This document shows, piece by piece, positions 38,870 to 56,484 of a DNA stretch of 64,000 nucleotides. Positions within the stretch are counted from its first letter, which is position 1; every line of letters starts with the position of its first letter. Both the position numbers and the translations under genes were made by a program. Below the pieces are notes generated by a model. That model ran no database searches and had not been told where the DNA came from. It saw only the letters and a program-made list of their open reading frames with translations. Source of the stretch: Candidatus Latescibacterota bacterium (lineage in GTDB: Bacteria > Latescibacterota > UBA2968); NCBI GenBank assembly GCA_965204745.1, contig OZ242010.1, positions 2,240,001 through 2,304,000 of the forward strand, in the 5' to 3' direction.

Positions 38870-40972
38870 TCACAGGTTGATTTCAAACGCGCAGTAGAGG
38901 CCGAAGGGGGCCGCGGGGATGATGGAGGGGGCCGGACCGCCAAAGCCTTGGGTGTCGTATTTTTGATCGGTCAGGTTTTTGGCGTTGATGCGGAAGGTCA
39001 CGCGCTTGTAAGTGTGCGATGCCGAGGCGTCCCACGTCCACACAGCCGCGATTTGGTACTCATTGTCCGGGGCGATGAACTGGCGGGTGACGTAGCGCGT
39101 GCCGAGGCCAAATTCCAAGCCATTATCCCAACCGATGGCGGTCCACACGTTGAGAATGTGGCGCGGGGAAAAGGCGGGCGCGTTTCCGGATCGGTCGGTG
39201 GGCTGATAGACGACGCCGGTTTGCGTGAACACGGGAACGATTTCCGCGAACCGGGTGAGCGTGGCATCGGAAAATGCGTAGGACAAAAAGGTGTGCCAGT
39301 TTCGCACCGGGCGCAGCATCACTTCGAGTTCGATGCCGCGAGATCGCTGGTCGCCCTCTTGTTGGGTGATGCCCGTGGCGTCGGGAATGGCGATGTTGTT
39401 TTTGGTCAAATTGTAAAACGCGACAGAGGCGTGCAAGCGGTTGTCCATGAGGTATTTTTTCGCGCCCACTTCAATTTGCGCGCTCTCTTCGGTTTGCCGA
39501 GGGCCGGCGACTCGGGTGGAGGGCGGGGCAAAGGCCCTGCCCGCATTGGCGTAAAACGAGAGGTCCGCAGTCGGCGAGAACACCAGCCCGGCCATGGGAC
39601 TCAGTTTATTGTACTCTCGCGCCGTGTTTGTGAGGGGGTCGTCGTAATCGATGCGGTCGTAGCGCGCGCCGAGGAAGGCTTGAGCGCGGTCCGAAAAGGC
39701 CATGCGGTTCACGATGTAGGGCGCGATGACCAGACTTCTGGCATCCGCGAATTGGTACGGGGAGCTTTCGGGCAACTGGCTCGCGGTTTCCGTGGGCGAG
39801 GCCAGGTCAATGGGGAGCAGATTGGCTGTGTCTAAGGTGAATTTGTCTTTCCACTGCATCAGTTCTAGCCCTGCCAACAAGGTGTGTTCAACGCGGCCGG
39901 TTGAGAATGTGAACAGCAATTCGGCCTGATTGCCCAAGACTTTTTGGCGGTCGTCCAAGAGCAACAAGGTGCGGTAGATGTCCAACCCCTGCTGGGCATT
40001 GGGGAAAATGGCACTGAACAAGGTGCCGTCCGATACCCACGAGAAATCCGTGTAATAGAGTTTGTCGCGCAAGGTGACGCGCTTGGACAGGCGAGATTGC
40101 ACATCGAATCGGGCGCGGTAAATTTTTTGGTCGGACGTGTCAAAGGGCGATTGGTACGACTGCGTGCGCGGCACTTCGGCCACGCTTCCGTTGACGATGG
40201 GCAGGCCCGAGTCCGGTTTGTATTTGCTCGTGACGTATTCAAAATTGACGGTCGCGGTGGTGTTGTCATCGACCCGCCAGGTCGCGGCCGGGTTGATGGC
40301 CCACAAGCCGCTGTTTTTGTCGTCTCGGTACCCGTTGGAAACTTGGCGCAGGGCATTGACGCGCAGGGCCGTGCCGCGTTCCAAATTCGCCCAGTTGCCG
40401 TCTATGGTGCCGCGCCCCGTGTTGTACGGGCCGTAAGAACCCGTCACTTGGAGGGCGTTTGAGAAAATGGGTTGTTTGCGGCTCAAGTTGACCGATCCAG
40501 ACAGGGGGTTGCCCCCGTATAAAAACGCGCCCGGGCCTTTGAGCACTTCCACGCGCTCCAAGTTGTAGAGGTGGTAAAATGTGGCTTCTGGCTCAGACGC
40601 GCCATCGGTGAGCACCAAGCCGCTGGTGAGCGAATCGAACCCGCGAATGACGAAGAAATCCGTGACTCCAGAGATGGTTTGGATGTTGACGCCGCTGATG
40701 TTTCGCAGCGCGTCTCCCAAAACCACGCCGCTTTGATGCTCGAACAAGCCGTGATTGACCACGCCGATGCTGGCCGGGGTCAATCGGATGGGCACTGGGA
40801 TTTTGGTCGCCACCGTGCTGACCGTGGGGACTTTTTCCTTGCTCTCCGTCACCACGATCTCCTCGCCCGCATAAACGGGCAGTTCGCTTTCTTCTTCCGC
40901 GTCCTCTGCAAAGATGAGGTTTGTCGAGAGGCAGAGGATACAGGTCAGTGTGAAGAAGTGGCGGAGGTGCAT
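38870..40972 (-). CDS. TonB-dependent receptor (siderophore-receptor-like)
   Basis: Signal peptide; EEIVVT TonB box; IRGF and ERVEVLKGP plug motifs; RSRGIE and NLTD barrel motifs. Confidence 0.9.
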   Translation of the reverse strand: MHLRHFFTLTCILCLSTNLIFAEDAEEESELPVYAGEEIVVTESKEKVPTVSTVATKIPVPIRLTPASIGVVNHGLFEHQSGVVLGDALRNISGVNIQTISGVTDFFVIRGFDSLTSGLVLTDGASEPEATFYHLYNLERVEVLKGPGAFLYGGNPLSGSVNLSRKQPIFSNALQVTGSYGPYNTGRGTIDGNWANLERGTALRVNALRQVSNGYRDDKNSGLWAINPAATWRVDDNTTATVNFEYVTSKYKPDSGLPIVNGSVAEVPRTQSYQSPFDTSDQKIYRARFDVQSRLSKRVTLRDKLYYTDFSWVSDGTLFSAIFPNAQQGLDIYRTLLLLDDRQKVLGNQAELLFTFSTGRVEHTLLAGLELMQWKDKFTLDTANLLPIDLASPTETASQLPESSPYQFADARSLVIAPYIVNRMAFSDRAQAFLGARYDRIDYDDPLTNTAREYNKLSPMAGLVFSPTADLSFYANAGRAFAPPSTRVAGPRQTEESAQIEVGAKKYLMDNRLHASVAFYNLTKNNIAIPDATGITQQEGDQRSRGIELEVMLRPVRNWHTFLSYAFSDATLTRFAEIVPVFTQTGVVYQPTDRSGNAPAFSPRHILNVWTAIGWDNGLEFGLGTRYVTRQFIAPDNEYQIAAVWTWDASASHTYKRVTFRINAKNLTDQKYDTQGFGGPAPSIIPAAPFGLYCAFEINL

Positions 40973-40997
40973 GGAAATCTCCTTGGCGTAGTGGTTA

Positions 40998-41286
40998 GAC
41001 GGCTTAAACGGTTTATCGAGAAAATCAAGTCCTGACGTTCCGCAGTATCGGGGCCTACCCCCCTAGCCCCCGTTACTCGCTACGCTTCGTTGTAGGCTAC
41101 GCCTGTGCCTGCGAGGAAGGGGGGAACGGTGAGCGGTTTTGCGAAGGTATTGATGGGGTTTTTTAATCGCTTTATGCCCTATCGGGACCTACCCCCCTAG
41201 CCCCCCTTCCTGCGAGGAAGGGGGGAACAGTGAGCGGTTTTGCGAGGGCATTGATGAGGGTTTTTAATCGCCTTATCCCCTCGGTC
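40998..41286. repeat. IS5-remnant/family A end followed by family B units
   Basis: CGGTTTATCGAGAAAATCAAG + CCTGACGTTCCGCAG, then two CCTGCGAGGAAGGGGGG units. Confidence 0.65.
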
Positions 41287-41656
41287 AACGCCATCGGAGC
41301 AACCAGAGCGAGAAGCCATCAAAGGGACTTTACTCCCCTTTCCTCGTAGGAAAGGGGCCGGGGGATAGGTCCCCTCGCAAAACGCCATCAGAGCAACCAG
41401 AGCGAGAAGCCATCAAAGGCACTTTACTCTCCTTTCCTCATAGGAAAGGGGCCGGGGGATAGGTCCCCTCGCAAAACGCCATCAGAGCAACCAGACCGAG
41501 AAGCCATCAAAGGGATTTTACTCCCCTTTCCTCGTAGGAAAGGGGCCGGGGGATAGGTCCCCTCGCAAAACGCCATCAGAGCAACCAGACCGAGAAGCCA
41601 TCAAAGGGACTTTACTCCCCTTTCCTCGTAGGAAAGGGGCCGGGGGATAGGTCCCC
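41287..41656. repeat. Tandem array of four near-identical 94-bp units, each with a CCCCTTTCCTCGTAGGAAAGGGG palindrome
   Basis: AACGCCATC recurs at 41287, 41381, 41475 and 41569. Confidence 0.9.
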
Positions 41657-42868
41657 ATCCGATATATTCAAACACGCGATTTTGTGCATGTCGCGGATGA
41701 ACAATTTGCCGTTGGCGAGTGTGGGGGCGGTCCAGCAAGTGCCTGACAGGACTTGCGCGTTGGCTTTTTCGCGGAAGGCTTCGGGCGATGCCTCGGCCAG
41801 TGCGAGTTTGCCCTTGTCGCTCAAGATGATCAAATGCCCATCCGCGTAGATGAGCGATCCTTTGCCATACCCGCGCTGCCGCCACTGCTGTTCGCCCGTG
41901 CTGGCGTGGATACATTTTAGGTTCGAGTTGTCAAACCCGTAGAGGTAGTCGCCGAGCAAGATGGAGGTGCTGAAATGATTTTTCATGACGCGGCTTTCCC
42001 ACACTTTTGTGACGTTCAAGCCCTCGCCGCGTTGTTCGATTTGCAAGAGGGCCGCGCCGTGGTCGTAGCCCGAAGAAATGAAGATGCGATTTGGGGGCAC
42101 GACAATGGGCGTGGCGATGTTCAGGTCGTACTGGGTCTCCCAGGGAAATCGCCAGTAGAGCGCGCCATCGGCGGGCGAGAGGCCAACGGCTGCTTCGCCA
42201 GAGACAAAGACCACTTGGCGAGTGCCCGCGAGGGTCGTGGCGATGGGCGAGGAGTAGGATACGATGTCGTTTTGAGACGCCCATTTGATCTCCCCGGTTG
42301 TTTTGTCCAATGCGAGAAAGGTGCCGCGGCGCGCGCCGGTTTCCAAGAGCAGGAGGCCGTTTTCGACCAGCGGCGAAGTTGAAAACCCGAATCTCGGGAT
42401 GCGACTGCCCAATTCGTCGCGCAGGTTGACCTGCCACAATTTTTTGCCATCCCTGGCGTCGAGGGCGTACAACACGCCCGTCGCGCCGAGCACGAAGACC
42501 CGATTCTCATCCACAGTGGGTTGGGCCCGAGGGCCGTTCCCGCCCTGGCGTTCATGGAATTTGGCACCGGTTTTGAATCGCCAGATTTCCGCGCCGGTCG
42601 CTTCGTCGAGGCAGATGGCAAATTCGCTTTCGCGGTCAGAGAACATGGTATAGACCCGTCTATCGGCGACCGAGATCCCGGAAAAGCCCTCGCCGAGTTC
42701 TGTTTCCCAAACGACGGGCGGCCCGTCTGCGGGCCAAGTCGTCAACAGCCCGGTTTCAGATGAATGCCCAGTCCTATCAGGCCCAAGCCACTGCGGCCAG
42801 TCGGCATGCGCGAGATGAAACGAAAAACAAATTGCTATGGCGATGAACGAGTAATGCCGGTATGACAT
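41612..42868 (-). CDS. Exported PQQ-type (BamB-like) beta-propeller protein
   Basis: Signal peptide; DWPQWLGP; repeated LDxxTGxxxW; YSSP. Confidence 0.85.
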   Translation of the reverse strand: MSYRHYSFIAIAICFSFHLAHADWPQWLGPDRTGHSSETGLLTTWPADGPPVVWETELGEGFSGISVADRRVYTMFSDRESEFAICLDEATGAEIWRFKTGAKFHERQGGNGPRAQPTVDENRVFVLGATGVLYALDARDGKKLWQVNLRDELGSRIPRFGFSTSPLVENGLLLLETGARRGTFLALDKTTGEIKWASQNDIVSYSSPIATTLAGTRQVVFVSGEAAVGLSPADGALYWRFPWETQYDLNIATPIVVPPNRIFISSGYDHGAALLQIEQRGEGLNVTKVWESRVMKNHFSTSILLGDYLYGFDNSNLKCIHASTGEQQWRQRGYGKGSLIYADGHLIILSDKGKLALAEASPEAFREKANAQVLSGTCWTAPTLANGKLFIRDMHKIACLNISDGDLSPGPFPTRKGE

Positions 42869-42916
42869 GATATTCTCCTGTAAAAAAAAATGAACAAGTG
42901 ACGCCTAAAATGCAAT

Positions 42917-44263
42917 TTAGGTGTAGCGGGCGTTGCGGTATTTGGGGTGGTAAAATTCGGGGAGGAGTTGGTCCACGCGCAGGAGCCCCTGGCGGCTTAG
43001 GGTGATGCTGTGGGAATCGAAAGACAACATCGCGGCATCGCGGAGTTCGCGGTAGATCGGCCCGAATCGCTGCAGGATATCCACGCCGAATTTGTCTTGA
43101 AAATACGCGGTTTCGATGCGCCCGAGTTTGAGTTGCAGGATCATTTCCCTGATCAGACGCTCTTCTTCTGTGGGCACAAAAGATCGGTTGATCGGGAGTT
43201 GCCCGCGGCCCGCGGCGTCGATGTACGGGTCCCAGTGCGTCTGGTTTTGGAAGTGCATGCCGCCTGCGTGGGAAAATGAGGCCACGCCCGTGCCGATGAG
43301 GTCCGCGCTGCGCCACAGGGCGTCCCGATAGATGAATTTGTTTGGGCGACCTTTTTTTGTCAAGGTGTACGCGCTAGAGGGTTCATAGCCCGCGGTGGCG
43401 AATTGTTCGATAGCGTAATCGTGCCATTCCCGCTTGGTTTGCCAGTCTGCGACCGGCACCCCATTGCCGCTGCGGATGGCCTGCGAGTACGTGGTGTTGA
43501 AGGGCAGTTCCATCTGGTAAATGGTCACGCTGTCCGCATCGAGGTCGATGGTGCGCTGCACTGTGTCTCGCCACGTCTCGAATACCTCCCCCACCATGCC
43601 CGCGATGAGATCCACGTTGACCTGTGCGAATCGTTGCGCTTTGACCCATGGCATGACCGCGTAAATTTCCTTGCTGACGTGGGCGCGGCCATTTTCGCGC
43701 AAGATGTCGTCGTTCAAATTTTCCAACCCCAAGCTCAAGCGCGTGACCCCGATATCGCGGATGGCCTCAACTTTGGATTGCGACAAAGTGCCCGGCTCGC
43801 ATTCAAATGCCACTTCTTCGGCAGCGTCCCACGGCATCGCGGCTTTGACCCGATCCACCAAAGCGCGTAGGTGTTTGACGCTGATGTAGGACGGGGTTCC
43901 GCCCCCAAAATAGATGAAGTGCAATGCGCGGCCCGCAATGCGCGGCAGGGTGCTGTACGTTTCGACTTCGCGGGCCAGGGCGTCCAGGTACGTTTGGATT
44001 TCAGAACTGTTGCGCCCGGTATAAACCCTGAAATAACAGAATTTGCACCGCTTGCGGCAAAAGGGGATGTGCATGTACAAGCCCAAGGGGATGGCTTTGT
44101 CCGCGGGGTCAGCGGCGTGCAACATGGCTTTGATGCGTGCCGTGTTTTCGTCTCGCCAAAAGGAATAGGGCGGGTAATTGGACACAAAGACGCTGCCCAC
44201 GTCTGTTTCCTTCCAAGCCTTGCGGGTGGTAGCCGGCTCTGGAATCAGGATTTGTTCGCTCAT
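42917..44263 (-). CDS. HemN-like (coproporphyrinogen III oxidase family) radical SAM enzyme
   Basis: YMHIPFCRKRCKFCYF, YFGGGTPS, TRLSLG and VDLIAG; ATG 44263 overlaps the upstream stop (ATGA). Confidence 0.85.
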   Translation of the reverse strand: MSEQILIPEPATTRKAWKETDVGSVFVSNYPPYSFWRDENTARIKAMLHAADPADKAIPLGLYMHIPFCRKRCKFCYFRVYTGRNSSEIQTYLDALAREVETYSTLPRIAGRALHFIYFGGGTPSYISVKHLRALVDRVKAAMPWDAAEEVAFECEPGTLSQSKVEAIRDIGVTRLSLGLENLNDDILRENGRAHVSKEIYAVMPWVKAQRFAQVNVDLIAGMVGEVFETWRDTVQRTIDLDADSVTIYQMELPFNTTYSQAIRSGNGVPVADWQTKREWHDYAIEQFATAGYEPSSAYTLTKKGRPNKFIYRDALWRSADLIGTGVASFSHAGGMHFQNQTHWDPYIDAAGRGQLPINRSFVPTEEERLIREMILQLKLGRIETAYFQDKFGVDILQRFGPIYRELRDAAMLSFDSHSITLSRQGLLRVDQLLPEFYHPKYRNARYT

Positions 44264-45378
44264 TTTTGTTCTCCAAAACAATACAAGGTGCCGTCGGTCG
44301 TGCCGATAATCAGCCGGTTGCGCGCCACGCTCGGAGAGGCCACAAAGCCGGAGCCCGCGACAAATTCCCATTCGGGTTCGCCCGTCTGCCGGTTCAAAGC
44401 CACGAGTTTGCCGCCGGTGGTGGCCGCATAGATGCGGTTGCCAGCGATGACCGGAGAGGCTTCAAACCGGGATCGAGAGGCGTAGGTCCACAGGGTTTCG
44501 CCGGTGTCTAGGTGCAAGGCGTGAACCATCTTGTCGCGGCCCGCAACGACGAGCAGATCAGCGGTGAGAGCAGGCGACGCGTAGTAGGGAAATTTGCGTT
44601 GTGGGTGTTCGTAGTGCCACGCGATTTTTTTGTCCTCGAGGTCGATGCACAACACTTGGTTGCCGTACGTGCCCACGTACGCGCGGGTGTTGCGAACCGC
44701 CGCGCTCGCGCCCACGTACGCATCGAGTGCGATTTCCCCGCGTTCTTCGCCGCTATCGATGTCGATCACGCGCAAGAACCCGTCGCATCCCGCGATGAGG
44801 GCCTGCGCTTGCGCGATAGCCGGCATGCCGTGGACGTAGCTATCGGTTTCGACCTGCCACAAGACGGCGCCGTCTTTGGGCGCGAGGCAATAGAGGGTGT
44901 GATCATAAGAGCCGATCAAGATGCGGTCAGGCGTCGCATTGGCCGATGAGAGGATTTCCCCATCTGTTTGAAAGGTCCATAAAACCTTCCCGGTTTGGGC
45001 ATCGACCGCGTGAAAGACGCCATTGCCGTCGCCGACGAAGACGCCGTTGCCCAGGGCCAATGGCGAGGCTTTGATCTCGCCGGTTGCGCGATAGGTCCAC
45101 AGCAACGCGCCGCTGTCCAAATCAAAGGCGTAGAGTTTTTCGTCCAACCCGCCCACATAGACCGCGTTTTGCCAGATCGCGGCTGTGGATTCAATGCCGA
45201 TTTCGATTTGCGCGGTCCACAAAACCGCCATGTCCTGTGGCAGGGCCGTGGCGACGCCTGTGGATTGTGCATCCCCGCGAAACCGCGTCCAGTCTTCTGC
45301 GCGGAGGGGCAGGACAAACAAAAAGCAACCGCTGATGAACGCGGATAACCACAGATGAAGGCGGGAGATGTCGTTCAT
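44260..45378 (-). CDS. Exported PQQ-type beta-propeller protein
   Basis: DWTRFRG; about 8 repeats of (A)SP...G...D...GxxxW. Confidence 0.85.
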   Translation of the reverse strand: MNDISRLHLWLSAFISGCFLFVLPLRAEDWTRFRGDAQSTGVATALPQDMAVLWTAQIEIGIESTAAIWQNAVYVGGLDEKLYAFDLDSGALLWTYRATGEIKASPLALGNGVFVGDGNGVFHAVDAQTGKVLWTFQTDGEILSSANATPDRILIGSYDHTLYCLAPKDGAVLWQVETDSYVHGMPAIAQAQALIAGCDGFLRVIDIDSGEERGEIALDAYVGASAAVRNTRAYVGTYGNQVLCIDLEDKKIAWHYEHPQRKFPYYASPALTADLLVVAGRDKMVHALHLDTGETLWTYASRSRFEASPVIAGNRIYAATTGGKLVALNRQTGEPEWEFVAGSGFVASPSVARNRLIIGTTDGTLYCFGEQK

Positions 45379-46502
45379 GAGTACACCGATGAATAAAGGG
45401 ACAGATAGGCTTGCTCGTCAACGGGTCTTGGGTTAAACGCCCCCGTCCATTGTTCTGTTGCATTTTTTGCCAGCGATGGGAGGTGGTCGCGGGCGACGCC
45501 GAGGTCGCGCAGGCGCGCAGGGAGGTGCGCGCGTTCTTTTAGGGCGATGATTTGCCGGGCGAGGGCGTCGGTATTTTCGCACAGGCCGCGATAGCGCGCG
45601 CTTTGGGTTTCCCCGTTGAATCGGATGACCGCGGGCAACATGAGGCCCACGGCGACGCCATGCGCGATGCCGAAATGCGCGGTTAAGGGATTGGCGCATG
45701 CGTGGGCCGCGCCCAACATGGCGTTTTCAATGGCTGCGCCGGCAAAGTGCGCCCCCAATAGCATGTGGCTTCGCGCCTCTTTGTCAGACGGATGGTCGAG
45801 CACGCGCTCGAAGCCGCGCGAGAGCAAGTGCCACGCCTTTTGCGCGAACAGTTGCGAGATCGGGGTCGCCCGCGTGCAGACGTAGCTTTCGATGGCGTGG
45901 GCCATAGCGTCGATGCCGGTTGCCGCAACCACGGGTCGCGGCGCGCTTTCGATGAGGGACGGATCGAGAATGGCGGTCTTGAATCGCGCTTTGAGGTCCC
46001 CACACGCCATTTTTTCGTGGGTCTTTGCATCGGAGATCAGGGCGTAGGATTGCGCTTCGCTTCCCGTGCCCGCGGTGGTGGGGATGCCGATAGACGGCAA
46101 CATGGGTTTGGTCGCGTGTCCCATGCCCCGGTAATCCGCCATCTGCCCGCCGTTGGTGAGGATGAAGTTGATGCCTTTGGCGCAGTCCATCGCGCTACCC
46201 CCGCCCAGGCCGATGATGCAGTCGATGGGGCCCCGCGCTTTTGCAAATGCCACGCCCGCCGAGACGTGTTGCGTGGTCGGATTTTCACCCGCGCCGTCGA
46301 ACACGCAACACGCGAGGGACGCGCTTTGCAGAGACGCGATGGCCCTGTCCGCAAGCCCGGCGCGCACGATGCCCGGGTCCGTGACGAGCAAGACGCGGTT
46401 GACGCCGAGTTCTGCGGCGCGTTGCCCGAGTTGCGCGAGTGTTCCCTCGCCGAATATCACGCGCGTTGAGGGGTGAAAGTCAAAGGGTGTGTGCGTGTAC
46501 AA
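45375..46502 (-). CDS. Iron-containing alcohol dehydrogenase
   Basis: GLGGGSAMD, PTTAGTGSE, DAMAHAIES and H...AHG metal ligands; TTG start after AAGGAGG. Confidence 0.9.
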   Translation of the reverse strand: MYTHTPFDFHPSTRVIFGEGTLAQLGQRAAELGVNRVLLVTDPGIVRAGLADRAIASLQSASLACCVFDGAGENPTTQHVSAGVAFAKARGPIDCIIGLGGGSAMDCAKGINFILTNGGQMADYRGMGHATKPMLPSIGIPTTAGTGSEAQSYALISDAKTHEKMACGDLKARFKTAILDPSLIESAPRPVVAATGIDAMAHAIESYVCTRATPISQLFAQKAWHLLSRGFERVLDHPSDKEARSHMLLGAHFAGAAIENAMLGAAHACANPLTAHFGIAHGVAVGLMLPAVIRFNGETQSARYRGLCENTDALARQIIALKERAHLPARLRDLGVARDHLPSLAKNATEQWTGAFNPRPVDEQAYLSLYSSVYS

Positions 46503-46519
46503 GGTGGTACCCTCCTTCT

Positions 46520-47947: not shown

Positions 47948-47986
47948 GGGGTATCCTTATTTAAGTTGTCTGTATCCCGCTTCACA

Positions 47987-48322
47987 TCAGGGATGAATGA
48001 GAAACAGACATTCAGTAGGGATCATGCGGTGCTGGTCTAAAACGTTTGGTCCTACAACCTCGTTGGTTGCATCCGATGCCTTCGGCGACTTCTTTTTTGC
48101 TTGCCCAAAAAAGAAGCAAAAAAGGGCACTCTCAAACGCCGAGAGGCTTGCACAGCGCAATGCGCTTTTGTAACAGAACGATACGCGCCAGCCTGCAAGG
48201 TGGGTTGCATAATGGATGTTGGTTGCGAGACGGACTTGCGCGCTGTGCGTGATGACCTTATCTGATGGTCTGTTGTGATGGCATGGTTGCAAGGGCTTCT
48301 CTGAATGACTGCGGAAGTCAAG
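47987..48322. mobile_element. Family A MITE copy
   Basis: Shares TCAGGGATGAATGAG with 38455 and the core with 820-1146; ends TGCGGAAGTCAAG. Confidence 0.75.
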
Positions 48323-48345
48323 GATCACCTGCTCTTATTTTTTTT

Positions 48346-49420: not shown

Positions 49421-49885
49421 TATTTTTGATAAAAACATAAGGGGTTTGATCGGTTTTCACAATTTTTTTCATAAAAGCCACATAGTTCTCGTACTGCGAC
49501 AGCGGTATTTGTTTTTTCATCAACTCGAATGTTCGGGTGTGGTGCAACGCGCCATCTGAAAAGCGATAGGTGGTTTTGAAAGAACCGAAGGGCGTTGTGA
49601 TTTCTTTTGTCTCGGGCGCGGTTTCCAAGGCGTATCCCTCGGGAATATCGATGGATAGGGAGTCGATATGCGTATAGGGATAGGAGTGGTACACGGAGAA
49701 TTGGCGTTCCCGTTCTCTCGGCACGTCCCTAGGCGTGGCGCGGTTCACGATGTTGGGATTGACAAAGAGTCTCTTCGCGCTTCGAGTGCCGAATTTGCCG
49801 GACGTGCCGCGGATGCACACCTCGAGGGGTTGATCGAAGTCCTCGTGCAGATGATCGATCTCATAAGTCGCCAAGTCCAGCACGG
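49421..49885 (-). pseudogene. C-terminal fragment of a DUF3857/DUF3858-type (transglutaminase-associated) protein
   Basis: IDIPEGYALETAP...TPFGSF...TRTF...QYENYVAF; bounded by the tnpB right end and IS701. Confidence 0.55.
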
Positions 49886-50181
49886 GTGAAGAACCCCTCG
49901 CTGAAGCATCGGGGCTTCAGCCCCACTTCAGCGTAGGTTGTGCGATCAACAGACAAAGCAGGTCAAGCCGCGACCTGTCTTACTTGTCCTTCTGCAAAGG
50001 TTGTCTTCCCAACCTCATGGATATTATACGCGGCGTTCAAGTCTCGGTCGCACGTCCAACCGCAGTAGCAACGGAACACACGGTCGCGCAAGTTCAAGTC
50101 TTCTTTGACCGTCCCACAAGCATTGCATGTCTTGCTGGACGGATAGAACTTGTCAATGAACACAATGTCTTTGCCGTGCTT
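49886..50181 (-). mobile_element. tnpB: tnpB 3' remnant with an intact-looking right end
   Basis: PSSKTCNACG...CYCG...DRDLNAAYNI zinc ribbon/RuvC-III; right-end hairpin GAAGCCCCGATGCTTCAGCGAGGGGTTCTTCAC. Confidence 0.8.
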
Positions 50182-50227
50182 CTCTCCACTCTCCCTCGCC
50201 TTCAACCGCGCCTTTGTGGTGATGGCA

Positions 50228-51319
50228 CTACCGGCCCCTCAAATCCAGCGCGATGCCAGTTGGCGACCTCAATCCTGTGGTGATGAGGTCTTCAACCTGG
50301 GAGCCATCCAAGTTGGCACGCTGAATCTTACCCGTCCAGGCCGTCCAGTACATCTTTCCGCGTCCCACATCCAGCGCGATGCCTTCTGGATTCCTCAATC
50401 CTGTGGTGATGAGGTCTTCGACATTGGAGCCATCCAAGTTGGCACGCTGAATCTTACCCGTGCCAAAGAACGGACTGTCCGTCCAGTACATCTTTCCGCG
50501 TCCCACATCCAGCGCGATGCCCCGTGGCCACCCCAATCCTGTGGTAATGAGGTCTTCGACATTGGAGCCATCCAAGTTGGCACGCTGAATCTTATCCGTG
50601 GTAACGTCCACCCAGTACATCTTTCCGCGTCCCACATCCAGCGCGATGCCCCGTGGCCCCCTCAATCCTGTGGTAATGAGGTCTTCGACATTGGAGCCAT
50701 CCAAGTTGGCACGCTGAATCTTATCCGTCCAAGTGTCCGTCCAGTACATCTTTCCGCGTCCCACATCCAGCGCGAAGCTCTCTGGCCACCTCAATCCTAT
50801 GGTGATGAGGTCTTCGACATCGGAGCCATCCAAGTTGGCACGCTGAATCTTACCCGTGCCAGAGAATGGCGAGGCCGTCCAGTACATCTTTCCGCGTCCC
50901 ACATCCAGCGCGATGCCAACTAGCGCACTCAATCCTGTGGTAATGAGGTCTTCGACATTGGAGCCATCCAAGTTGGCACGCTGAATCTTATCCGTGCGAA
51001 CGTCCGTCCAGTACATCTTGGGCGTCCCTCCCCCACTGCCACCAGGAGGTGGAGGCTGTGGGGGAGGGACCGGACACGATGTGCCATAACTGCTGGCAAA
51101 ACTAAGAAAATCCTGAAAGTCTATCGCGCCATCGCTATTCAAATCGTACTTGGCTTGGTATCTGCCATCCCCTTGCCGCGTGCCAAATTGCCCTGCAAAC
51201 GCAAGAAAGTCGGAAAAGCCTACCGTGCCATCGCCATCAAAATCTGCTTCGCACTGTGCTCCAGCCGGGGCGTGCATCACCAACACACAACTCATAACAC
51301 ACAGATACCACAGCCGCAT
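50228..51319 (-). CDS. Secreted protein: dockerin/EF-hand pair + Pro/Gly linker + six YWTD (LDL-receptor class B) repeats
   Basis: Signal peptide; DFDGDGTVGFSDF...DLNSDGAIDFQDF; 6x KMYW...KIQRANLDGSxVEDLIT. Confidence 0.9.
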   Translation of the reverse strand: MRLWYLCVMSCVLVMHAPAGAQCEADFDGDGTVGFSDFLAFAGQFGTRQGDGRYQAKYDLNSDGAIDFQDFLSFASSYGTSCPVPPPQPPPPGGSGGGTPKMYWTDVRTDKIQRANLDGSNVEDLITTGLSALVGIALDVGRGKMYWTASPFSGTGKIQRANLDGSDVEDLITIGLRWPESFALDVGRGKMYWTDTWTDKIQRANLDGSNVEDLITTGLRGPRGIALDVGRGKMYWVDVTTDKIQRANLDGSNVEDLITTGLGWPRGIALDVGRGKMYWTDSPFFGTGKIQRANLDGSNVEDLITTGLRNPEGIALDVGRGKMYWTAWTGKIQRANLDGSQVEDLITTGLRSPTGIALDLRGR

Positions 51320-51394
51320 AACCGCCTCCTAAAAAAAATTTTGGGCGACTTTAGAATAGGCGTCGCCCAGAGCCTTATCGTACAAACAAACGCC

Positions 51395-51481
51395 TCAATA
51401 GGCGTCACCGGCGCATCTGCGTAACGTGCTCGGATGAACGCCAAGCAAAGCAACCGCTTTGCGCGTATTTACATAAGCCAT
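51395..51481 (-). pseudogene. IS607-family tnpA 5' remnant (MerR-like HTH)
   Basis: Manual translation MAYVNTRKAVALLGVHPSTLRRCAGDAY*, similar to the LGVxxxTLRRW start of IS607 TnpA; AT-rich upstream segment. Confidence 0.55.
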
Positions 51482-51541
51482 AACCGATAACTTACCACAA
51501 TAAACAACAAAAGTCAGCAATCTATTTACAAGACGTTAGCA

Positions 51542-52630
51542 CTAATAAACCCCGACGACCACGGATTCTTGCAATTCGGAGAACAAGCCGAGGTTTCGCA
51601 CGCCGTCCCATGGATAGGCTTCGATGGGTTTGGCGCGCTCGGCTTCGTCGCGTTCGAGGAACCGGGGCATGAAAAATTCCTCGGTGAGGGTCGTGAGCAT
51701 GACGCGACCGACCGCGTCGTAATCGACTGTTTCGTCCGGATCGTTTGGATCGACCAATTCGATGAACGCACGGGGCACGGGAGGGTAGTAGGTGATGGCG
51801 TAGTTGTCTTCCGGCGCGAAGGGTTTGGAATAGGCCAGGCCCATGAGGGTGTTGCCGTACGTGGGGACGAAGTCGATGCCGGGAATCAGTTCTTCCCGAG
51901 CAAAGCGATTGAATTGCGCGTCCATCTCTGTGCCGCCGCAAAAGATGCCGGTGATGCCGGCTTTTTGCAGGGATATTTTTTCGCACAATTCCTCGAGGAG
52001 CTTGGGGGTTGTGAACATGCATTTCACGTTGTCATTGGCGCGCAAAATCGTGAGGGCCTGGTCGATGACGTGGGCTTTGTACAGTTCCAATTCGTGGAAC
52101 GCGCCGCGCTTGATCAGCTTGTTGACCCATCGGGGATCGAGATCGACGAGAAAGCAGATCCCCCCGCGAATCTGGCACAGGTATTCCACGGCCAAGCGCA
52201 AGCGGCGAGGCCCTGTCGGCCCCAGCATCAACCAATCCGCACCCTGGGGAAAGGTCTCGTCAGAGAGGTGGTCGCTGAACATTTTGTAGTCGATCTGAAA
52301 ATCGTTTTGGCTGATCCGGTATTTGGGCACGCCGGTCGAGCCGCCCGTTTCAAAGACGTACGTGCGTTCTCCCTCGTTGCCCTTGGGAATCCAGCGGCGC
52401 ACGGGCCCACCGCGCAACCATTCGTCTTGGAAATGCCCGAGGAGCTTCAAATCGCCGTACCCGCCGATTTCCCGGCGCGGATCAAAGTCCAATCCCCGCG
52501 CAAAATCCAGCCAGAACGGACAACCCGTATTTGAATCGAAATGCCATGCGACCATCTCGCGCACCTGGGCATCGAGGCCCTCACGCGCTGCTTTGACCCT
52601 GTCGGCGATGGGGGTGGTTAAAATTTCCAT
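51542..52630 (-). CDS. EhpF/GriC-like AMP-forming acyl-activating protein (LuxE/PaaK-related)
   Basis: GCPFWL, FETGGSTGVPK (adenylate P-loop), GPTGP, DLDPRWV, TTPKLL, GGT, YGNTL, GRVMLTTL and ERD. Confidence 0.7.
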   Translation of the reverse strand: MEILTTPIADRVKAAREGLDAQVREMVAWHFDSNTGCPFWLDFARGLDFDPRREIGGYGDLKLLGHFQDEWLRGGPVRRWIPKGNEGERTYVFETGGSTGVPKYRISQNDFQIDYKMFSDHLSDETFPQGADWLMLGPTGPRRLRLAVEYLCQIRGGICFLVDLDPRWVNKLIKRGAFHELELYKAHVIDQALTILRANDNVKCMFTTPKLLEELCEKISLQKAGITGIFCGGTEMDAQFNRFAREELIPGIDFVPTYGNTLMGLAYSKPFAPEDNYAITYYPPVPRAFIELVDPNDPDETVDYDAVGRVMLTTLTEEFFMPRFLERDEAERAKPIEAYPWDGVRNLGLFSELQESVVVGVY

Positions 52631-52719
52631 GTGATGATCTTTCCGTGAATCGGGTTGAAAAACAGCGTTCAGGGCGGGGCGGAGGGACTGACCACTGACT
52701 ACTGACCACTGACCACTTT

Positions 52720-54144
52720 CTACTGCCCCCCTTTAATCGCAAACAACGTATTTCGCGTGCCGATGTAGAGCATGCCATCTTTGGCGATAGGCGTGGTATA
52801 GACCGCGCTGCCCATGTTGATGTCGGCGATGAGTTCCAATTCGGTGCCGGCTTTCAAAATCGCCACATCGCCATCTTCGTCTCCGATATAGACTTTGCCA
52901 TCGGCGACAAAGGGCGACCCCCAGATCGCGGCGTAAGTGTCGTATTTCCAGTGCTGCGCGCCGGTCATGACGTCGAGGCAATAGACAAAGCCGCTCAGGT
53001 CCGCGGCGTAGAGCAGGCCGTCTTGGATGGCGACGGTTGAAATGGTTCGGTTGAATTTTTCGTCGCCAAAGTGCCACATCGCGTGCGTGCCGGTGACGTC
53101 GCCCGTGCCGGTGGCGTCGATGGCCCACAAGTGCCCGATGCCTTCGCCGTGTTCCGGATCTTGTCCGACGCCGATGAAGACCTTGTCGTCATAGATGACG
53201 GGCGTGGCGATAATGGCATTGCGCGTGCCGCGGCCGCCCAGTTCCCACACGGATTCTTTGGGGTTGCTATCGAATTTCCAGATCAGGTCGCCGGTTTCGG
53301 GCTCCATCGCATACACCCAGCCGTCGCCGCCCGGGCAGATCACTTGGGGCTTGCCCGCGATGACGCCGTACGCGGGATTGGACCATTGCCCGTGCAAGAT
53401 GTGTTCCCCCGGATAGTCTTTTTCCCAAACCAAGTCCCCGCTGTCCAGGGTGAGGGCGATAAAGCTAGGCGCCAGGGGCGAGGGGATGGCGATATGGCCT
53501 TCATCCACGCCATTGGCGGTGATGACGAACAACAGATTGCCCGCGGCCACGGGCGAACACACCGCCAAGTTGTGCGGGAAAACGTCCAACTCCTCCATCA
53601 TGTCGTATTCCCAAATAATGTCCACGCCAATCGCGCTCGTGTCGTCTTCTGCGGTGAATGGGCCGTCGTTTTCGCCGTCTAAAAACCCCTCGGTGTCCGC
53701 ACAGACCACGCGGCATTGGTTGGAGATGTAATACATTCGGTCGCCGCGGATATACGGCGTGGAGCAAACGCCCTGTTGCGGCCAGTCGTTCACCCGGCCC
53801 GCGGGCAATTTGGGATGGGCCGCTTGCCAGAGGAATTTGCCATCGGCTTCCCGAAAGGCCATGATCACGCCCTTGTCCCCCTTGATTTTGGGATTGCGCG
53901 CGATTTGGTTGTTCGTGCCCATGAAAATTTTGCCCCCGATTTTGATGGGGCCTGCGTAGGATTGGGCACCCAGGGCCGCTTTCCAAACGATGTTTTCACC
54001 GGTTTCCACATTCCAAGAGGTGGGCAGATTTTTTGCTTCTGACACCAAGTTCCGCTGTGGGGTGAACCCCCACATAGCCTCTTCGGCAATGGCTGACGAG
54101 GCGATCATGCTGACGCATCCGATTACAAGTGCTTTCAGTTTCAT
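52720..54144 (-). CDS. Exported PQQ-type beta-propeller protein
   Basis: Signal peptide (ATG 54144); NIVWKA, GVCSTP, WSNP, IATP and WGSP repeats. Confidence 0.85.
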   Translation of the reverse strand: MKLKALVIGCVSMIASSAIAEEAMWGFTPQRNLVSEAKNLPTSWNVETGENIVWKAALGAQSYAGPIKIGGKIFMGTNNQIARNPKIKGDKGVIMAFREADGKFLWQAAHPKLPAGRVNDWPQQGVCSTPYIRGDRMYYISNQCRVVCADTEGFLDGENDGPFTAEDDTSAIGVDIIWEYDMMEELDVFPHNLAVCSPVAAGNLLFVITANGVDEGHIAIPSPLAPSFIALTLDSGDLVWEKDYPGEHILHGQWSNPAYGVIAGKPQVICPGGDGWVYAMEPETGDLIWKFDSNPKESVWELGGRGTRNAIIATPVIYDDKVFIGVGQDPEHGEGIGHLWAIDATGTGDVTGTHAMWHFGDEKFNRTISTVAIQDGLLYAADLSGFVYCLDVMTGAQHWKYDTYAAIWGSPFVADGKVYIGDEDGDVAILKAGTELELIADINMGSAVYTTPIAKDGMLYIGTRNTLFAIKGGQ

Positions 54145-54223
54145 TTTGTTCCTTTGTTTGTTAAGAGGTGAGAGGCAAGAGGCAAGAGGCAAGAGGCAAG
54201 GCAATCGCCCCTACACACGGCTC

Positions 54224-54293
54224 GCCTTTGAACTAGCTGTCGCCAGTTGTACCCCGCTCGTGCCTTTGAACTGGCTGTCGCCAGTTGTACCCC
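54224..54293. repeat. Two tandem copies of a 38-bp-period mini-repeat
   Basis: GCCTTTGAACT(A/G)GCTGTCGCCAGTTGTACCCC x2. Confidence 0.85.
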
Positions 54294-54339
54294 ACTCGTG
54301 GCTAAACTTCCATCTTCCCGTCAGGAGGATAGGGTGGTT

Positions 54340-56484
54340 TTACCACACTTTCACATTGTCGTAATAAATCATCGCAGGGGAATACCCGTAAAGGCCGGGG
54401 CTGCCTTCGCGGATGGGCAAGGGATCTTCGGCTTCGATGGTCCACGCATTCGGTTCGGGATCGCCCGTTTTCCACACCTTGCCGCGCACGATAGCCTTAT
54501 CGCCTTGGATATCGACCTTCATTTTTGCGGTGTACCAAGTGCCCATCTCCCACGGGAAGTCGATGCGTTTTGCCATTCGCAAATCCGATGACCACGACCG
54601 AATTTCGAGGCGTTGGTGAATGCCCTGAAGGTCGAGGATGTAGCGGTGCGCGATGAGGCCCATGTCTGGGCGTCGCCGCTTGTTTTGCGTGCCCATCAGG
54701 TCGGCTTGGATGGTGTATGCCGAGAGCGTGTGCCGCGCCATGTAGAGGTTTGAGCGGTCGAGGCCACGCGCTGCCGGCGGTTTGGTCAGCACTTTGTTGC
54801 CGTCTTGTTCCTCCACCCGAAACCCGCTGCCGGCCCAGACCCAGTGCAAGGGGTTTTTGCCGACTTCCACATTTTCAAAATCCTCTGTCCACGGCACCGC
54901 GGGCAAGACGCGCACCCAGGTTTGGCGGGTCAAATCGCCCACTTTGGCGGTGATCCAACCGCCGCCCGGTTTGGATGGGGTGAACGCGCTGGTTGCGATT
55001 TTGCCTTCCAAGCCATCCAACGACCACTCGGCGTCCAGGTCGCCGATGGCGCGGCCCTTGTCGTCGTAGGCGACAGCGCGCAGGGGCAGGGATTCGCCGG
55101 CTTGCACGGTGGCTTCGGCGGGGATGGATAGGATGGACGCGGGTTGGGCACCTGCGGGCGCGGGTTGGTGCTCTGCGAAAGCCGAGGAGGTGACTTCAAA
55201 CGGCGCGGTTTTGTCGCCCAAGCAGAACAGCCCGGCCTCGGTTGCAAAATAGATGCGGCGATAAGCGATGGCGACCGACCCGTAGATTTCAGCGTGCCCG
55301 CCTTCGGGCATGGCGATTTTCTTTTTGTCGAGCACGGTGGCGCCCGCGTCCTCTACTTTGAGGATTTGCACGCCGCCATTGACTTCTGTGACATAGACTT
55401 TGCCATCGGCCCAGGTGGGCGATCCCCTGCCCACGGTGCCGATGTTGTGTTCCCAGTACTGTTTGCCGGTCTCGGCGTCCAAGCAGTGTAGATTGGCCGA
55501 GTTGTCGATCACATAGACGCGGCCCGCGTGGACCGCGGGGGACGCATAGCCCGCGGTCATGCCGTCTTGCCGCCAGAGTTCCTCGCCCGTGCGAGCGTCC
55601 AAACAGGCGACGCGGCCGAGGGAGGTGTTATCGACATTTTCCTCGCTGTGCGCGACATAGACGCGACCATCAGCCACCGCGGGCGAGGTGTTGATGCCCC
55701 GCAGGCTAAAGGGAAATCCCCATACTTTTTCTCCGGTTGCGGCTTTGAAGGCGAAAATGCCGCCGTTGCCATTGCCCGCGATGAGCACGCGTTGCCCGTC
55801 GATGGTCGTGACAACCGGGGTCGAGTAAATGGTCAAGTCCTTCTGCCCGCCGCCGCCCGGACGCGCCATCCATACGGTTTGCCCGGTGCGCTTGTTCAGG
55901 GCGAGATACCGATGCGAAGGGGGTTTGCCGGCCCACCCGCGGTTGCCCAGGCTGATGATGACGAGGTCGCCTTCGACCACCGGCGTGTGCAATCGCCCGC
56001 CATACCCGGAGAATCGGTTAAATTCCTCGGTGAGGGAGCGCGTCCAGATTTCGTTGCCATCCGGGTCAAAGCAGATCAACAACCCGCTGACGAGGTGCGC
56101 GTAGATGTTGCCCGTTTCCGGGTCTGCGCCCAGGTTTGCCCAGCCGAGGCGGTTGAAGGAAATGGTCGAGTGCCAGACATTGAACTTCTTTTCCCACAAG
56201 AGTTCGCCGGTTTCCGCGTCAAAACAAGCGATGTGTTCTCGCTGCGTGATGTCTTTGCCCGTGCGCCCGACGACATAGACCCGGCCATTGACGATGGCCG
56301 GGGTCGATCTGCCGATGAACGGGCGACGCCAGATCAGGTTTTCGCCGTCGAGGGACCAGGTGGCGATGAGGCCCGTCTCCGGCGAAGCACCCGTTTGCAT
56401 GGGGCCGCGCCAATGCGTCCAATCAGACGCGTCGGCAATTCCCAGCGAAGAGATGCAGAACAACGCAACCAAAATAATCTTCAT
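54340..56484 (-). CDS. Exported PQQ-type beta-propeller with C-terminal Ig-like and beta-sandwich domains
   Basis: Signal peptide (ATG 56484); DWTHWRGP; repeated CxDAxTGxxxW; C-terminal WTEDFE...GTWYTAKM...YYDNVKV. Confidence 0.8.
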   Translation of the reverse strand: MKIILVALFCISSLGIADASDWTHWRGPMQTGASPETGLIATWSLDGENLIWRRPFIGRSTPAIVNGRVYVVGRTGKDITQREHIACFDAETGELLWEKKFNVWHSTISFNRLGWANLGADPETGNIYAHLVSGLLICFDPDGNEIWTRSLTEEFNRFSGYGGRLHTPVVEGDLVIISLGNRGWAGKPPSHRYLALNKRTGQTVWMARPGGGGQKDLTIYSTPVVTTIDGQRVLIAGNGNGGIFAFKAATGEKVWGFPFSLRGINTSPAVADGRVYVAHSEENVDNTSLGRVACLDARTGEELWRQDGMTAGYASPAVHAGRVYVIDNSANLHCLDAETGKQYWEHNIGTVGRGSPTWADGKVYVTEVNGGVQILKVEDAGATVLDKKKIAMPEGGHAEIYGSVAIAYRRIYFATEAGLFCLGDKTAPFEVTSSAFAEHQPAPAGAQPASILSIPAEATVQAGESLPLRAVAYDDKGRAIGDLDAEWSLDGLEGKIATSAFTPSKPGGGWITAKVGDLTRQTWVRVLPAVPWTEDFENVEVGKNPLHWVWAGSGFRVEEQDGNKVLTKPPAARGLDRSNLYMARHTLSAYTIQADLMGTQNKRRRPDMGLIAHRYILDLQGIHQRLEIRSWSSDLRMAKRIDFPWEMGTWYTAKMKVDIQGDKAIVRGKVWKTGDPEPNAWTIEAEDPLPIREGSPGLYGYSPAMIYYDNVKVW

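Follow-up and report, generated by a model that had tools for sequence, protein, structure and literature searches.

EhpF and EhpG of the Pantoea-type phenazine pathway reduce one carboxylate of phenazine-1,6-dicarboxylate. In the LuxC/LuxE system, a small ANL-type acyl-activating protein passes the acyl group to the Cys of a reductase of the aldehyde dehydrogenase (ALDH) superfamily, and among periplasmic quinoproteins the pyrroloquinoline quinone (PQQ) dehydrogenases are encoded beside pqq cofactor genes. In Streptomyces, GriC forms the acyl-AMP of 3-amino-4-hydroxybenzoate (3,4-AHBA) and GriD reduces it to the aldehyde, according to the available part of PMC10179220, which cites Suzuki 2007. 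Until now, two-protein carboxylate reductases had been described only for a handful of pathways leading to antibiotics and pigments. In this work, a gene cluster built around such a pair was analyzed in a stretch of 64,000 nucleotides from a Candidatus Latescibacterota bacterium (GenBank assembly GCA_965204745.1, contig OZ242010.1, positions 2,240,001 to 2,304,000 of the forward strand). This whole stretch is called the window, and coordinates refer to it unless a locus number (L001 and so on) precedes them. The cluster joins the putative reductase pair to an iron-containing alcohol dehydrogenase (Fe-ADH), a HemN-like enzyme of the radical S-adenosylmethionine (SAM) type and exported beta-propeller proteins. 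The arrangement is far beyond chance, and 80 related loci, from records whose titles name five phyla, show its order again.

When the open reading frame (ORF) list was combined with Pfam and NCBIfam scans, nine genes were observed at 38870-56484, all on the minus strand and in the order that a first-pass annotation, made from the sequence alone, had given. In the direction of transcription, these are propeller 1 (PQQ_2; 54340-56484), propeller 2 (PQQ_2; 52720-54204), a truncated AMP-ligase of the EhpF/GriC type (362 amino acids; 51542-52630) and, after an insert, an ALDH-like reductase of the EhpG/GriD type (475 amino acids; 46520-47947). They are followed by a group III Fe-ADH (45375-46541), propeller 3 (44260-45378), the HemN-like radical SAM enzyme (448 amino acids from the ATG at 44263; 42917-44263), propeller 4 (PQQ_2; 41612-42868) and a TonB-dependent receptor (38870-40972). 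The ATGA overlaps said to join Fe-ADH, propeller 3 and the radical SAM gene are both present in the sequence (45375-45378 and 44260-44263, respectively). It was also correct that the window holds no phz, gri or pqq family among the Pfam matches of its 41 scanned ORFs, a scan that ORFs of less than 100 amino acids (the size of pqqA) fall outside. In a promoter and terminator scan, promoter-like sites were at chance level (9 found, 7.4 expected); the one good -35/-10 pair (56575-56547) lies just upstream of propeller 1 and is consistent with an operon, without being evidence for it. No known RNA or riboswitch was matched in Rfam at E-values up to 1 between positions 35000 and 60000.

For the comparison with other genomes, one genome per species was scanned, which gave at least 578 confirmed ligase relatives, and the best 80 loci were taken with 10-kb flanks. 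Genes were scored by tblastn on the same strand (E-value of 1e-10 or lower, at least 50 % coverage, gene-specific identity floors of 35-50 %), and the phylum names are those in the record titles (Latescibacterota, Poribacteria, Calditrichia, Gemmatimonadota and Acidobacteria). Since many loci end early or hold long inserts, the count for each gene is a lower bound. The ALDH-like gene follows the ligase in 70 of the 80 loci; it is missing there from the other ten, six of which have less than 4.5 kb after the ligase. Propeller 2 was found in 61 loci, always just upstream of the ligase, and propeller 1 in 59, followed by Fe-ADH (52), propeller 3 (47) and the radical SAM gene (41). Of the 52 loci with Fe-ADH, 47 have propeller 3 after it, and of the 47 with propeller 3, 41 have the radical SAM gene next; every miss among these three genes is a locus with 1.2 kb or less of sequence left. 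The gaps are shorter than 300 nucleotides in 45/47 (Fe-ADH to propeller 3) and 41/41 loci (propeller 3 to radical SAM), and 4-nucleotide gene overlaps recur in loci of other phyla. Fe-ADH, propeller 3 and the radical SAM gene are contiguous wherever there is enough sequence.

The first-pass annotation had named a lack of synteny in other genomes as the finding that would speak against it; what was found is strong synteny across phyla. Cluster membership, on the other hand, was drawn too widely. The ligase, the reductase, Fe-ADH, propeller 3 and the HemN-like enzyme form the invariant core, whereas propeller 4 and the TonB receptor, present in only 18/80 loci each, are lineage-specific accessories. 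Because the flanking genes outside the cluster differ between clades, the conservation is that of the cluster and not of the chromosome.

A tree was drawn from the concatenated ligase and ALDH-like proteins (71 rows; ten loci without 90 % coverage of both were left out). One clade holds 33 of the 34 Poribacteria-titled rows, and the window falls into another with the Latescibacterota-titled rows and the five Gemmatimonadota-titled ones. Such a topology agrees with descent that was mostly vertical and would make the operon an old one. The window proteins were also compared with those of L027-L080, which mostly bear titles of other phyla and include three Latescibacterota-titled loci. The mean identity was highest for the ligase (74.7 %) and propeller 2 (70.0 %), followed by the radical SAM enzyme (65.2 %), the ALDH-like protein (64.9 %), Fe-ADH (59.8 %), propeller 1 (53.9 %) and propeller 3 (51.8 %). 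Across the loci titled with the five phylum names, the ligase is 72-96 % identical. A protein search with the ligase found at least 8000 proteins with E-values of 0.001 or lower, and none of the best 120 matches listed was below 72 % identity. In a library that had been clustered at 50 % identity, there were 1429 representatives of the ligase superfamily at 1e-3 or lower and 246 at 1e-30 or lower, of which a single full-length one exceeded 50 % identity (64 %), the next full-length ones lying at 31-44 %. For this reason, the subfamily can be described as a tight island apart from EhpF and GriC.

The ligase matches the EhpF structures in the PDB (3l2k and 3hgu) with a phmmer E-value of 2.4e-42, residues 21-348 being aligned with 22-351 of EhpF, and the two proteins are of similar size (362 and 366-369 amino acids). 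Its Pfam AMP-binding match is limited to profile positions 255-360 (22.1 bits). With about 360 residues and no C-terminal ANL subdomain, the protein has both features by which, as we understand it, the truncated ANL class is defined. Its phosphate-binding loop ETGGSTGVPK corresponds to the motif (T/S)GG(S/T)TG.PK. Nine positions of the loop are invariant, including E94, T95, G96, G97, T99, G100, P102 and K103 (16/16), and Ser98 is present in at least 90 % of rows. When plasmids were searched with tblastn, 29 records contained ligase relatives at 31-36 % identity, annotated as arylcarboxylate reductase, phenazine biosynthesis protein or AMP-binding protein; the Streptomyces relatives bear the first of these names. 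One plasmid record (L082) is an ehp-like phenazine cluster in which the ligase homologue is followed by a 1371-nucleotide ALDH-family gene (L082:9026-10396). We called this gene an ehpG homologue because the gene order and lengths match a published Proteus table that names ehpF and ehpG.

The ALDH-like protein of the window can be aligned over its full length with this EhpG homologue (26 % identity over 434 amino acids; E-value 4e-37). It has a Pfam Aldedh match of 51.6 bits, and its similarity to solved ALDHs is weak (E-value 3e-8). Residues 252-258 read HGPGQSK and were aligned by HMMER with LEAGGKSP of a solved ALDH (PDB 5iuu), which places His252 opposite the general-base Glu of ALDHs; the EhpG homologue has Gln at this position. 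Cys288, Asn164, Lys185 and HGPG.SK are invariant in the 14 orthologues (14/14). Thus, the retained catalytic Cys and the replaced general-base motif are as first described, and a Glu-to-His change with the Cys kept fits a reductase. The assignment of the ligase and its partner as a two-protein carboxylate reductase of the EhpF/EhpG-GriC/GriD type, likewise proposed in the first-pass annotation, is supported by the homology to both EhpF and EhpG, by the Streptomyces relatives annotated as arylcarboxylate reductase and by the makeup of the active site.

We also considered whether the pair belongs to LuxC/LuxE. However, no window protein had a Pfam LuxE or LuxC match at E-values up to 10; the L082 EhpG homologue has a weak LuxC match (19.9 bits). 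Fused forms were not accepted as Rosetta-stone support either. Sixteen longer proteins were found (for example ligase plus ALDH, ligase plus ALDH plus Fe-ADH, and propeller plus ligase), of which 15 are single sequences and the sixteenth has three members, and the seven that were aligned gave broken or partial alignments. They are likely assembly or frameshift artefacts, because an exported propeller on a cytoplasmic ligase makes no topological sense.

Fe-ADH is, judging from its motifs, an ordinary group III enzyme. It matches Pfam Fe-ADH with 165.5 bits (cut-off 31.3) and ADH_Fe_C with 137.1 bits (cut-off 27), and its best PDB match is an NAD-dependent methanol dehydrogenase (8zrl; E-value 3e-65). 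The GGGS, D...H and two His motifs, which we take to be the metal and NAD motifs of the family, align with this structure and are intact. Its start is likelier a TTG near 46502, which is preceded by the Shine-Dalgarno sequence AAGGAGG.

The radical SAM enzyme has matches to Pfam Radical_SAM (65.0 bits; cut-off 29.5) and HemN_C (27.3 bits; cut-off 24). Its best solved relatives are HemN (1olt; E-value 2e-30) and NocN (9p2u; E-value 2e-26), the latter a class C methylase. The cluster motif C-x3-C-x2-C is followed by Tyr-Phe instead of the fourth Cys, a residue that counts as significant for HemN. The best NCBIfam match was ChuW/HutW (TIGR04107; 184.1 bits, cut-off 400), followed by HemN (TIGR00538; 169.5 bits, cut-off 324.95) and HemW (TIGR00539; 158.6 bits, cut-off 205.4). 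Since it is below the curated cut-off of these and of every other named NCBIfam subfamily, the enzyme forms a separate subfamily. Among HemN-like proteins there are methylases, cyclopropanases and heme chaperones, besides others, and class C enzymes attach one-carbon units to sp2 carbons, according to the available part of PMC10114718. One-carbon transfer to an aromatic carbon is taken as the most likely option for its chemistry. Upstream of the ATGA start, the reading frame of this gene continues without a stop for 36 codons (44264-44371), overlapping the end of propeller 3, and tblastn alignments of close relatives extend into this part, likely because the propeller frame constrains the DNA. 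In Poribacteria, the propeller 3 and radical SAM genes have no such overlap.

As read by eye, all four propellers have a hydrophobic, signal-like N-terminus followed by a conserved aromatic motif, and so do the orthologues of other phyla; no twin-arginine motif was seen by eye in these N-termini. They had been described as PQQ-type. The 8-bladed PQQ_2/BamB-like fold stands; however, the scores against the PQQ-dehydrogenase model TIGR03075 (53, 33.3, 83.8 and 41 bits for propellers 1 to 4) are far below its cut-off of 480 bits, so that 'PQQ-type' is a fold label only. No CxxCH motif occurs in the four proteins. Against BamB (TIGR03300), they score 118.9, 64.4, 189.7 and 64.7 bits, with an equivalog cut-off of 285.2 bits. 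The propellers share the BamB fold but, by these scores, are not BamB orthologues. When folds were searched with propellers 1 and 2, BamB dominated and tetrathionate hydrolase and the PQQ and lanthanide dehydrogenases ranked lower.

Propeller 1 (Pfam PQQ_2, 130.8 bits) was modelled with AlphaFold2 (predicted local distance difference test, pLDDT, 84.1; predicted template modelling score, pTM, 0.85) as an 8-bladed propeller followed by an immunoglobulin (Ig)-like sandwich and a C-terminal beta-sandwich domain. Its best fold matches in the PDB are BamB and tetrathionate hydrolase, and its C-terminal 306 amino acids, comprising the two beta-sandwich domains, have no Pfam match. Its ORF extends to 56556 and the likely start is the ATG at 56484, ahead of the signal peptide; in the orthologues, a hydrophobic N-terminus precedes a conserved DW..WRGP motif. 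Propeller 2 (PQQ_2, 78.8 bits; pLDDT 76.6, pTM 0.81) is 8-bladed, nearest to BamB, and probably starts at the ATG at 54144. It is the best conserved of the propellers (mean column identity 75 % in a 12-sequence alignment), numerous Asp, Glu, His and Cys residues of its loops modelled with low confidence are invariant, and it retrieved only PQQ_2-named clusters in an ESM Atlas search. Propeller 3 matches Pfam Beta-prop_ACSF4 (201 bits; cut-off 133) and PQQ_2 (151.8 bits), and its N-terminus is signal-like in all ten orthologues examined (10/10). It is thus predicted to be an exported protein, and it is translationally coupled on both sides to cytoplasmic enzymes. Propeller 4 has a PQQ_2 match of 170.4 bits. 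The receptor matches Pfam Plug (60.7 bits) and TonB_dep_Rec_b-barrel (153 bits); it passes the siderophore-receptor subfamily TIGR01783 (260.8 bits, cut-off 223.5) and fails the heme-receptor model (64.6 bits, cut-off 316.85).

The interleaved gene order, the translational coupling and the joint conservation across phyla make a strong case that the enzymes and the propellers are functionally associated, and do not indicate the nature of that association. While the observation of the cluster in the first-pass annotation was confirmed, its interpretation, an acid reduced to aldehyde and alcohol and then modified by radical chemistry, possibly to serve the propellers, is partly supported. Our ranking of the readings runs from a metabolite that works with the propellers through a secreted natural product, uptake of an external compound, maturation of the propellers and heme handling to mere neighbours.

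We tentatively favour the first of these, a small metabolite derived from an aromatic acid and working with the exported propellers in the periplasm, to which we give somewhat less than an even chance. The 362-residue ligase would adenylate a free, probably aromatic, carboxylic acid with ATP, and the acyl group would move to Cys288 of the ALDH-like partner, where the thioester would be spared from hydrolysis because this protein is without the water-activating Glu. NAD(P)H would reduce the Cys288 thioester to the aldehyde and Fe-ADH would convert the aldehyde to the alcohol. The HemN-like enzyme would add a one-carbon unit, or make another radical change, at an sp2 carbon of the same scaffold. 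The product would then act in the periplasm as a ligand, cofactor or substrate of the co-translated exported propellers, and in Latescibacterota the siderophore-class TonB receptor would re-import the product or a precursor.

Some relatives carry genes that bear on the substrate. Of the 80 loci, 15 have a PaaK-like ligase after the cluster. It stands alone in 11 of these, and in the other four (L027, L028, L029 and L062) it is followed by a flavin-halogenase-like protein with a Pfam Trp-halogenase match. The pairs lie at L027 16227-18783, L029 16074-18770 and L062 12941-15467. The proteins of L027, L029 and L062 have the W.W.IP motif, which we take to mark flavin-dependent halogenases, while that of L028 is halogenase-like by similarity only. 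The PaaK-like and halogenase-like genes point to an electron-rich aromatic substrate in those relatives. In Poribacteria, further genes were found between the core genes: a 233-residue propeller-like gene in 23 loci (for example L031 11211-11912; weak Vgb-lyase-like match), a thiamine pyrophosphate enzyme in 13, a creatininase-family gene in 11 and a PhyH dioxygenase in 12. Such genes could be extra pathway steps. Coordinates of in-operon genes in one Poribacteria locus are L038 11226-12977 and 15270-16058.

Several points weigh against the metabolite reading. The window itself is without the PaaK-like and halogenase genes, and aryl specificity is an extrapolation since identity to even the closest characterised relatives is no higher than about 26-36 %. 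Four of the 80 loci have 10 kb after the ligase and no ALDH-like gene, 13 have 5.6-8.5 kb after the ALDH-like gene and no Fe-ADH, and three Calditrichia-titled loci have only the ligase and reductase within 10 kb, with propellers also present in L067 and L070. Because of the 13 loci and the Calditrichia-titled ones, the alcohol and radical SAM steps are not universal in the DNA covered. The L015-L026 clade and L051 have no propellers 1 and 2 upstream. There is no exporter or inner-membrane importer in the conserved core. The propellers are BamB-like rather than like cofactor-binding quinoproteins. Finally, the radical SAM protein could instead be a decarboxylase-type or heme-handling enzyme.

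In a bolder form of the metabolite reading, which we regard as unlikely, the operon would make a new periplasmic cofactor or tight ligand, an aromatic hydroxymethyl or methylated compound, that activates a widespread class of exported orphan PQQ_2/BamB-like propellers, in phyla rich in such proteins of unassigned role. If so, it would parallel PQQ and the quinoproteins, and the near-invariance of the ligase and propeller 2 from phylum to phylum would reflect a fixed cofactor structure.

Next in rank, and in our view rather unlikely, is a secondary-metabolite cluster, with a small aromatic product, halogenated in some relatives, released as a bioactive compound. The receptor and propellers would then serve uptake, resistance or processing, with no catalysis involving the product. 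The PaaK-like ligase in 15/80 loci and the halogenase-like protein in four of them (three with W.W.IP) agree with this, as does the role of EhpF/EhpG and GriC/GriD in antibiotic or pigment pathways. In the available part of a 2026 preprint (10.64898/2026.08.03.742642), halogenase-plus-AMP-ligase (Halo_AMP) clusters are treated as candidate producers of brominated alkaloids; the identity of these clusters with the operon is unconfirmed. On the other hand, 72-96 % identity and a kept gene order across phyla, with mostly vertical descent, are rare for biosynthetic clusters. The halogenase is missing from the window and from most loci, and the core has no scaffold-building enzyme (non-ribosomal peptide synthetase, polyketide synthase, or phz or gri core).

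It is unlikely, too, that the cluster takes up and converts an external compound, which the propellers would bind or process outside, TonB-dependent transport would import and the enzymes would reduce and modify at its carboxylate, so that the cell could assimilate or detoxify it. In favour of this, the receptor is above the siderophore-receptor cut-off, the Ig-like and beta-sandwich domains of propeller 1 are typical binding modules, a sodium:solute symporter adjoins the cluster in L051 and L067, and an intradiol-dioxygenase-like gene precedes propeller 1 in L030. However, only 18/80 loci have the receptor and the core has no inner-membrane importer, and spending ATP and two NAD(P)H on an acid-to-alcohol reduction is unusual in catabolism. 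This reading also leaves unexplained why an exported propeller is coupled between two cytoplasmic enzymes.

A further reading is protein maturation. Propeller 3 always stands directly between Fe-ADH and the radical SAM gene, often with 4-nucleotide overlaps, and the radical SAM enzyme, perhaps with the reductase, would modify it or other propellers before Sec export to give a protein-derived cofactor. Sulfatase maturases and quinohemoprotein amine dehydrogenase are parallels. The propeller loops of low model confidence, with their invariant Cys, His, Asp and Glu residues, would agree with this, as would export in the unfolded state, which is suggested because no twin-arginine motif was seen by eye. 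We consider it improbable all the same. The only substrates known for EhpF/GriC-type ligases are small free acids, there is no precursor peptide and no SPASM-type maturase, and three Calditrichia-titled loci, two of them with propellers (L067 and L070), retain the ligase and reductase without the radical SAM gene. Moreover, peptide-acting HemN-like enzymes belong to thiopeptide pathways, as far as the available part of PMC10114718 describes them.

Still less probable is a role in tetrapyrrole or heme handling, in which the radical SAM enzyme and the receptor would take up heme and open or modify it, and the reductase would have a propionate side chain as its target. In NCBIfam, the radical SAM enzyme is matched best by ChuW/HutW (184 bits), HemN is its best solved structure and a TonB receptor lies in the same operon; yet the enzyme stays well short of the cut-off of every heme-related model, the receptor reaches 64.6 of the 316.85 bits required by the heme model while passing the siderophore model, and it is missing from most loci, with no further heme gene in the core. 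That the propeller and enzyme genes are mere neighbours with no common function is already disfavoured and hardly credible: clades differ in whether they have propellers 1, 2 and 4 and the receptor, and unrelated genes are often inserted between members, but the interleaved order is kept across loci titled with the five phylum names while the flanks differ, Fe-ADH, propeller 3 and the radical SAM gene are contiguous wherever the sequence suffices, and both ATGA overlaps exist.

The insert between the ligase and the ALDH-like gene (47948-51541) had been taken for a mobile element. It is indeed foreign, with a transposase, a low G+C content and no counterpart of its YWTD and transposase genes at this position in the 80 loci, and its makeup is more complex than claimed, as it consists of four pieces. 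The first is a minus-strand gene (50228-51319; Pfam Ldl_recept_b, 180.9 bits) whose secreted product is a propeller of the YWTD (LDL-receptor class B) type, its N-terminus being dockerin/EF-hand-like. The second is the 3' remnant of a transglutaminase-like gene on the same strand (49431-49886), 91 % identical in blastn to L001 14514-14969 and 77-81 % identical to L003, L009 and L012. The third is an IS701-family transposase (48350-49438, minus strand; NCBIfam NF049921, 378 bits, cut-off 250; G+C 0.505) and the fourth a dispersed-repeat copy (47974-48333) identified with blastn. The insert pieces have a G+C content of 0.505-0.56 and the nine cluster genes one of 0.577-0.631. The intact transglutaminase-like gene of L001, which carries DUF3857, Transglut_core and DUF3858, is located at the same site, and such a gene stands between the ligase and the ALDH-like gene in some relatives. 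None of the 80 loci carries a counterpart of the transposase at this position. The YWTD protein was tried as a conserved member and rejected, as it has no counterpart at the site in the 80 loci and its sole match lies elsewhere in L049; it has no similarity to the 233-residue propeller-like gene that Poribacteria carry at the same site. The YWTD gene is thus window-specific and outside the conserved operon.

The dispersed repeat (about 300-390 nucleotides) has four copies in the window at 77-86 % identity in blastn (47974-48333, 38441-38809, 27389-27699 and 853-1149). One copy adjoins the IS701 transposase, and another, just downstream of the TonB receptor, overlaps a 122-residue ORF with no Pfam match. 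A 94-nucleotide tandem repeat of 4.1 copies (41276-41656; Tandem Repeats Finder score 692, 95 % matches) takes up the space that separates propeller 4 from the receptor and extends over about 15 codons at the end of propeller 4. Because the reading frame runs into this repeat, the tail of propeller 4 (about 15 codons) differs from that of its orthologues. Each unit contains a G+C-rich hairpin, and an extra copy of the repeat core is found 8.5 kb away (32790-32815).

In the relatives, the gaps of the operon are insertion hot spots for selfish and candidate defence genes, with the core genes intact throughout. The cargo comprises PDC-M38 A and B, HEC-01A with a DUF4276 protein, PDC-S01, 23S rRNA intervening-sequence (IVS) proteins, a DNA methylase, a nucleotidyltransferase, and TnpB or transposase fragments (L001 8157-9925; L038 5625-7588; L004 11110-12294; L002 11330-12496; L030 9491-9970 and 11076-11483). 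The window itself holds candidate anti-phage systems according to PADLOC, namely HEC-01 A (508 bits) and B (177 bits) at 29163-30925 and, at 18755-19921, an AAA_14/DUF4143 ATPase of the PDC-S01 type.

Divergently upstream of the operon, the window has a PhyH gene and a DUF6785/DUF6784 membrane protein; other Latescibacterota loci also have PhyH (11 loci) and DUF6785 (10 loci) genes. A DUF6785/DUF6784 protein followed by a giant FtsX/MacB-like protein (more than 1300 amino acids) occurs twice in the window (5268-11849 and 57845-63998), and the second pair, with PhyH, is the one divergently upstream. A distant DUF6785 homologue (25 % identity) is found upstream in four Poribacteria loci. A 1930-residue minus-strand ORF (12688-18480), the sole Pfam match of which is Calx-beta, is probably a giant surface or adhesion protein.

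The significance of the operon lies in how it links small-molecule chemistry in the cytoplasm to secreted propellers, whose family is very common and functionally blank, and the ligase is the most conserved gene of an operon common to Latescibacterota, Poribacteria, Calditrichia, Gemmatimonadota-titled and Acidobacteria genomes. If the link to the propellers is true, it would offer a concrete, testable handle on their role and a new metabolite, possibly a cofactor. Even a conservative reading gives a five-gene module that is now annotated as 'hypothetical' or 'phenylacetate-CoA ligase'.

No description of the operon was found in the literature searched, with the possible exception of clusters in a 2026 preprint (Loureiro et al., bioRxiv, 10.64898/2026.08.03.742642), so that the claim of an undescribed pathway stands apart from this possible overlap. 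According to its available part, the preprint mined sponge metagenomes for Halo_AMP clusters and found, in the same phyla, clusters that hold PQQ-like, radical SAM, TonB and toxin-antitoxin genes and have no assigned products. The phyla and the mix of AMP-ligase, PQQ-like, radical SAM, TonB and toxin-antitoxin or defence genes are those of the operon. In contrast, the Halo_AMP clusters are defined by a halogenase, which is missing from the window, and their overlap with the operon is unconfirmed; the available part of the preprint names no EhpF/EhpG-type reductase and has 0 occurrences of 'aldehyde dehydrogenase'.

Among the characterised systems, the HemN-like and class C enzymes (HemN, HemW, ChuW, NosN/NocN, MenK and TbtI) share the radical SAM core and HemN_C domain with the window enzyme, which nevertheless scores below the cut-off of every named subfamily. 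The periplasmic quinoproteins resemble the operon in having Sec-exported 8-bladed propellers together with cytoplasmic small-molecule enzymes, including one radical SAM enzyme. However, the window propellers fail the PQQ-dehydrogenase model and are BamB-like, there are no pqq genes and no precursor peptide, and the radical SAM enzyme is HemN-like and not PqqE-like. With LuxC/LuxE, the pair shares the logic of an ANL-type activator and an ALDH-superfamily Cys, but the window has no Pfam LuxC or LuxE match and no LuxD-type transferase. The two-protein logic of GriC/GriD in the grixazone pathway of Streptomyces griseus, with the acyl-AMP formed by an AMP-binding protein and the aldehyde by an ALDH-like partner, is the same as far as the available part of PMC10179220 describes it; the relation rests on annotated homologues at 31-36 % identity and not on the GriC/GriD sequences, and in the window the aldehyde is probably carried on to the alcohol by the co-encoded Fe-ADH.

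In EhpF/EhpG of the Pantoea-type phenazine (D-alanylgriseoluteic acid) pathway, as in the window, an adenylating enzyme of about 360 amino acids is followed by an ALDH-like protein of about 460, both proteins show full-length homology to those of the window, and the EhpG homologue and the window reductase both have a residue other than Glu at the general-base position (Gln and His, respectively). The identity is only about 26-36 %, though, and the window has no phz genes. While the ehp hosts are Enterobacterales, the hosts of the window type are Latescibacterota, Poribacteria and others, and their pair stands in a different and far more conserved operon with Fe-ADH, a radical SAM enzyme and exported propellers. 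What is known here is the EhpF/EhpG-type reductase; what is new is the very conserved operon around such a pair.

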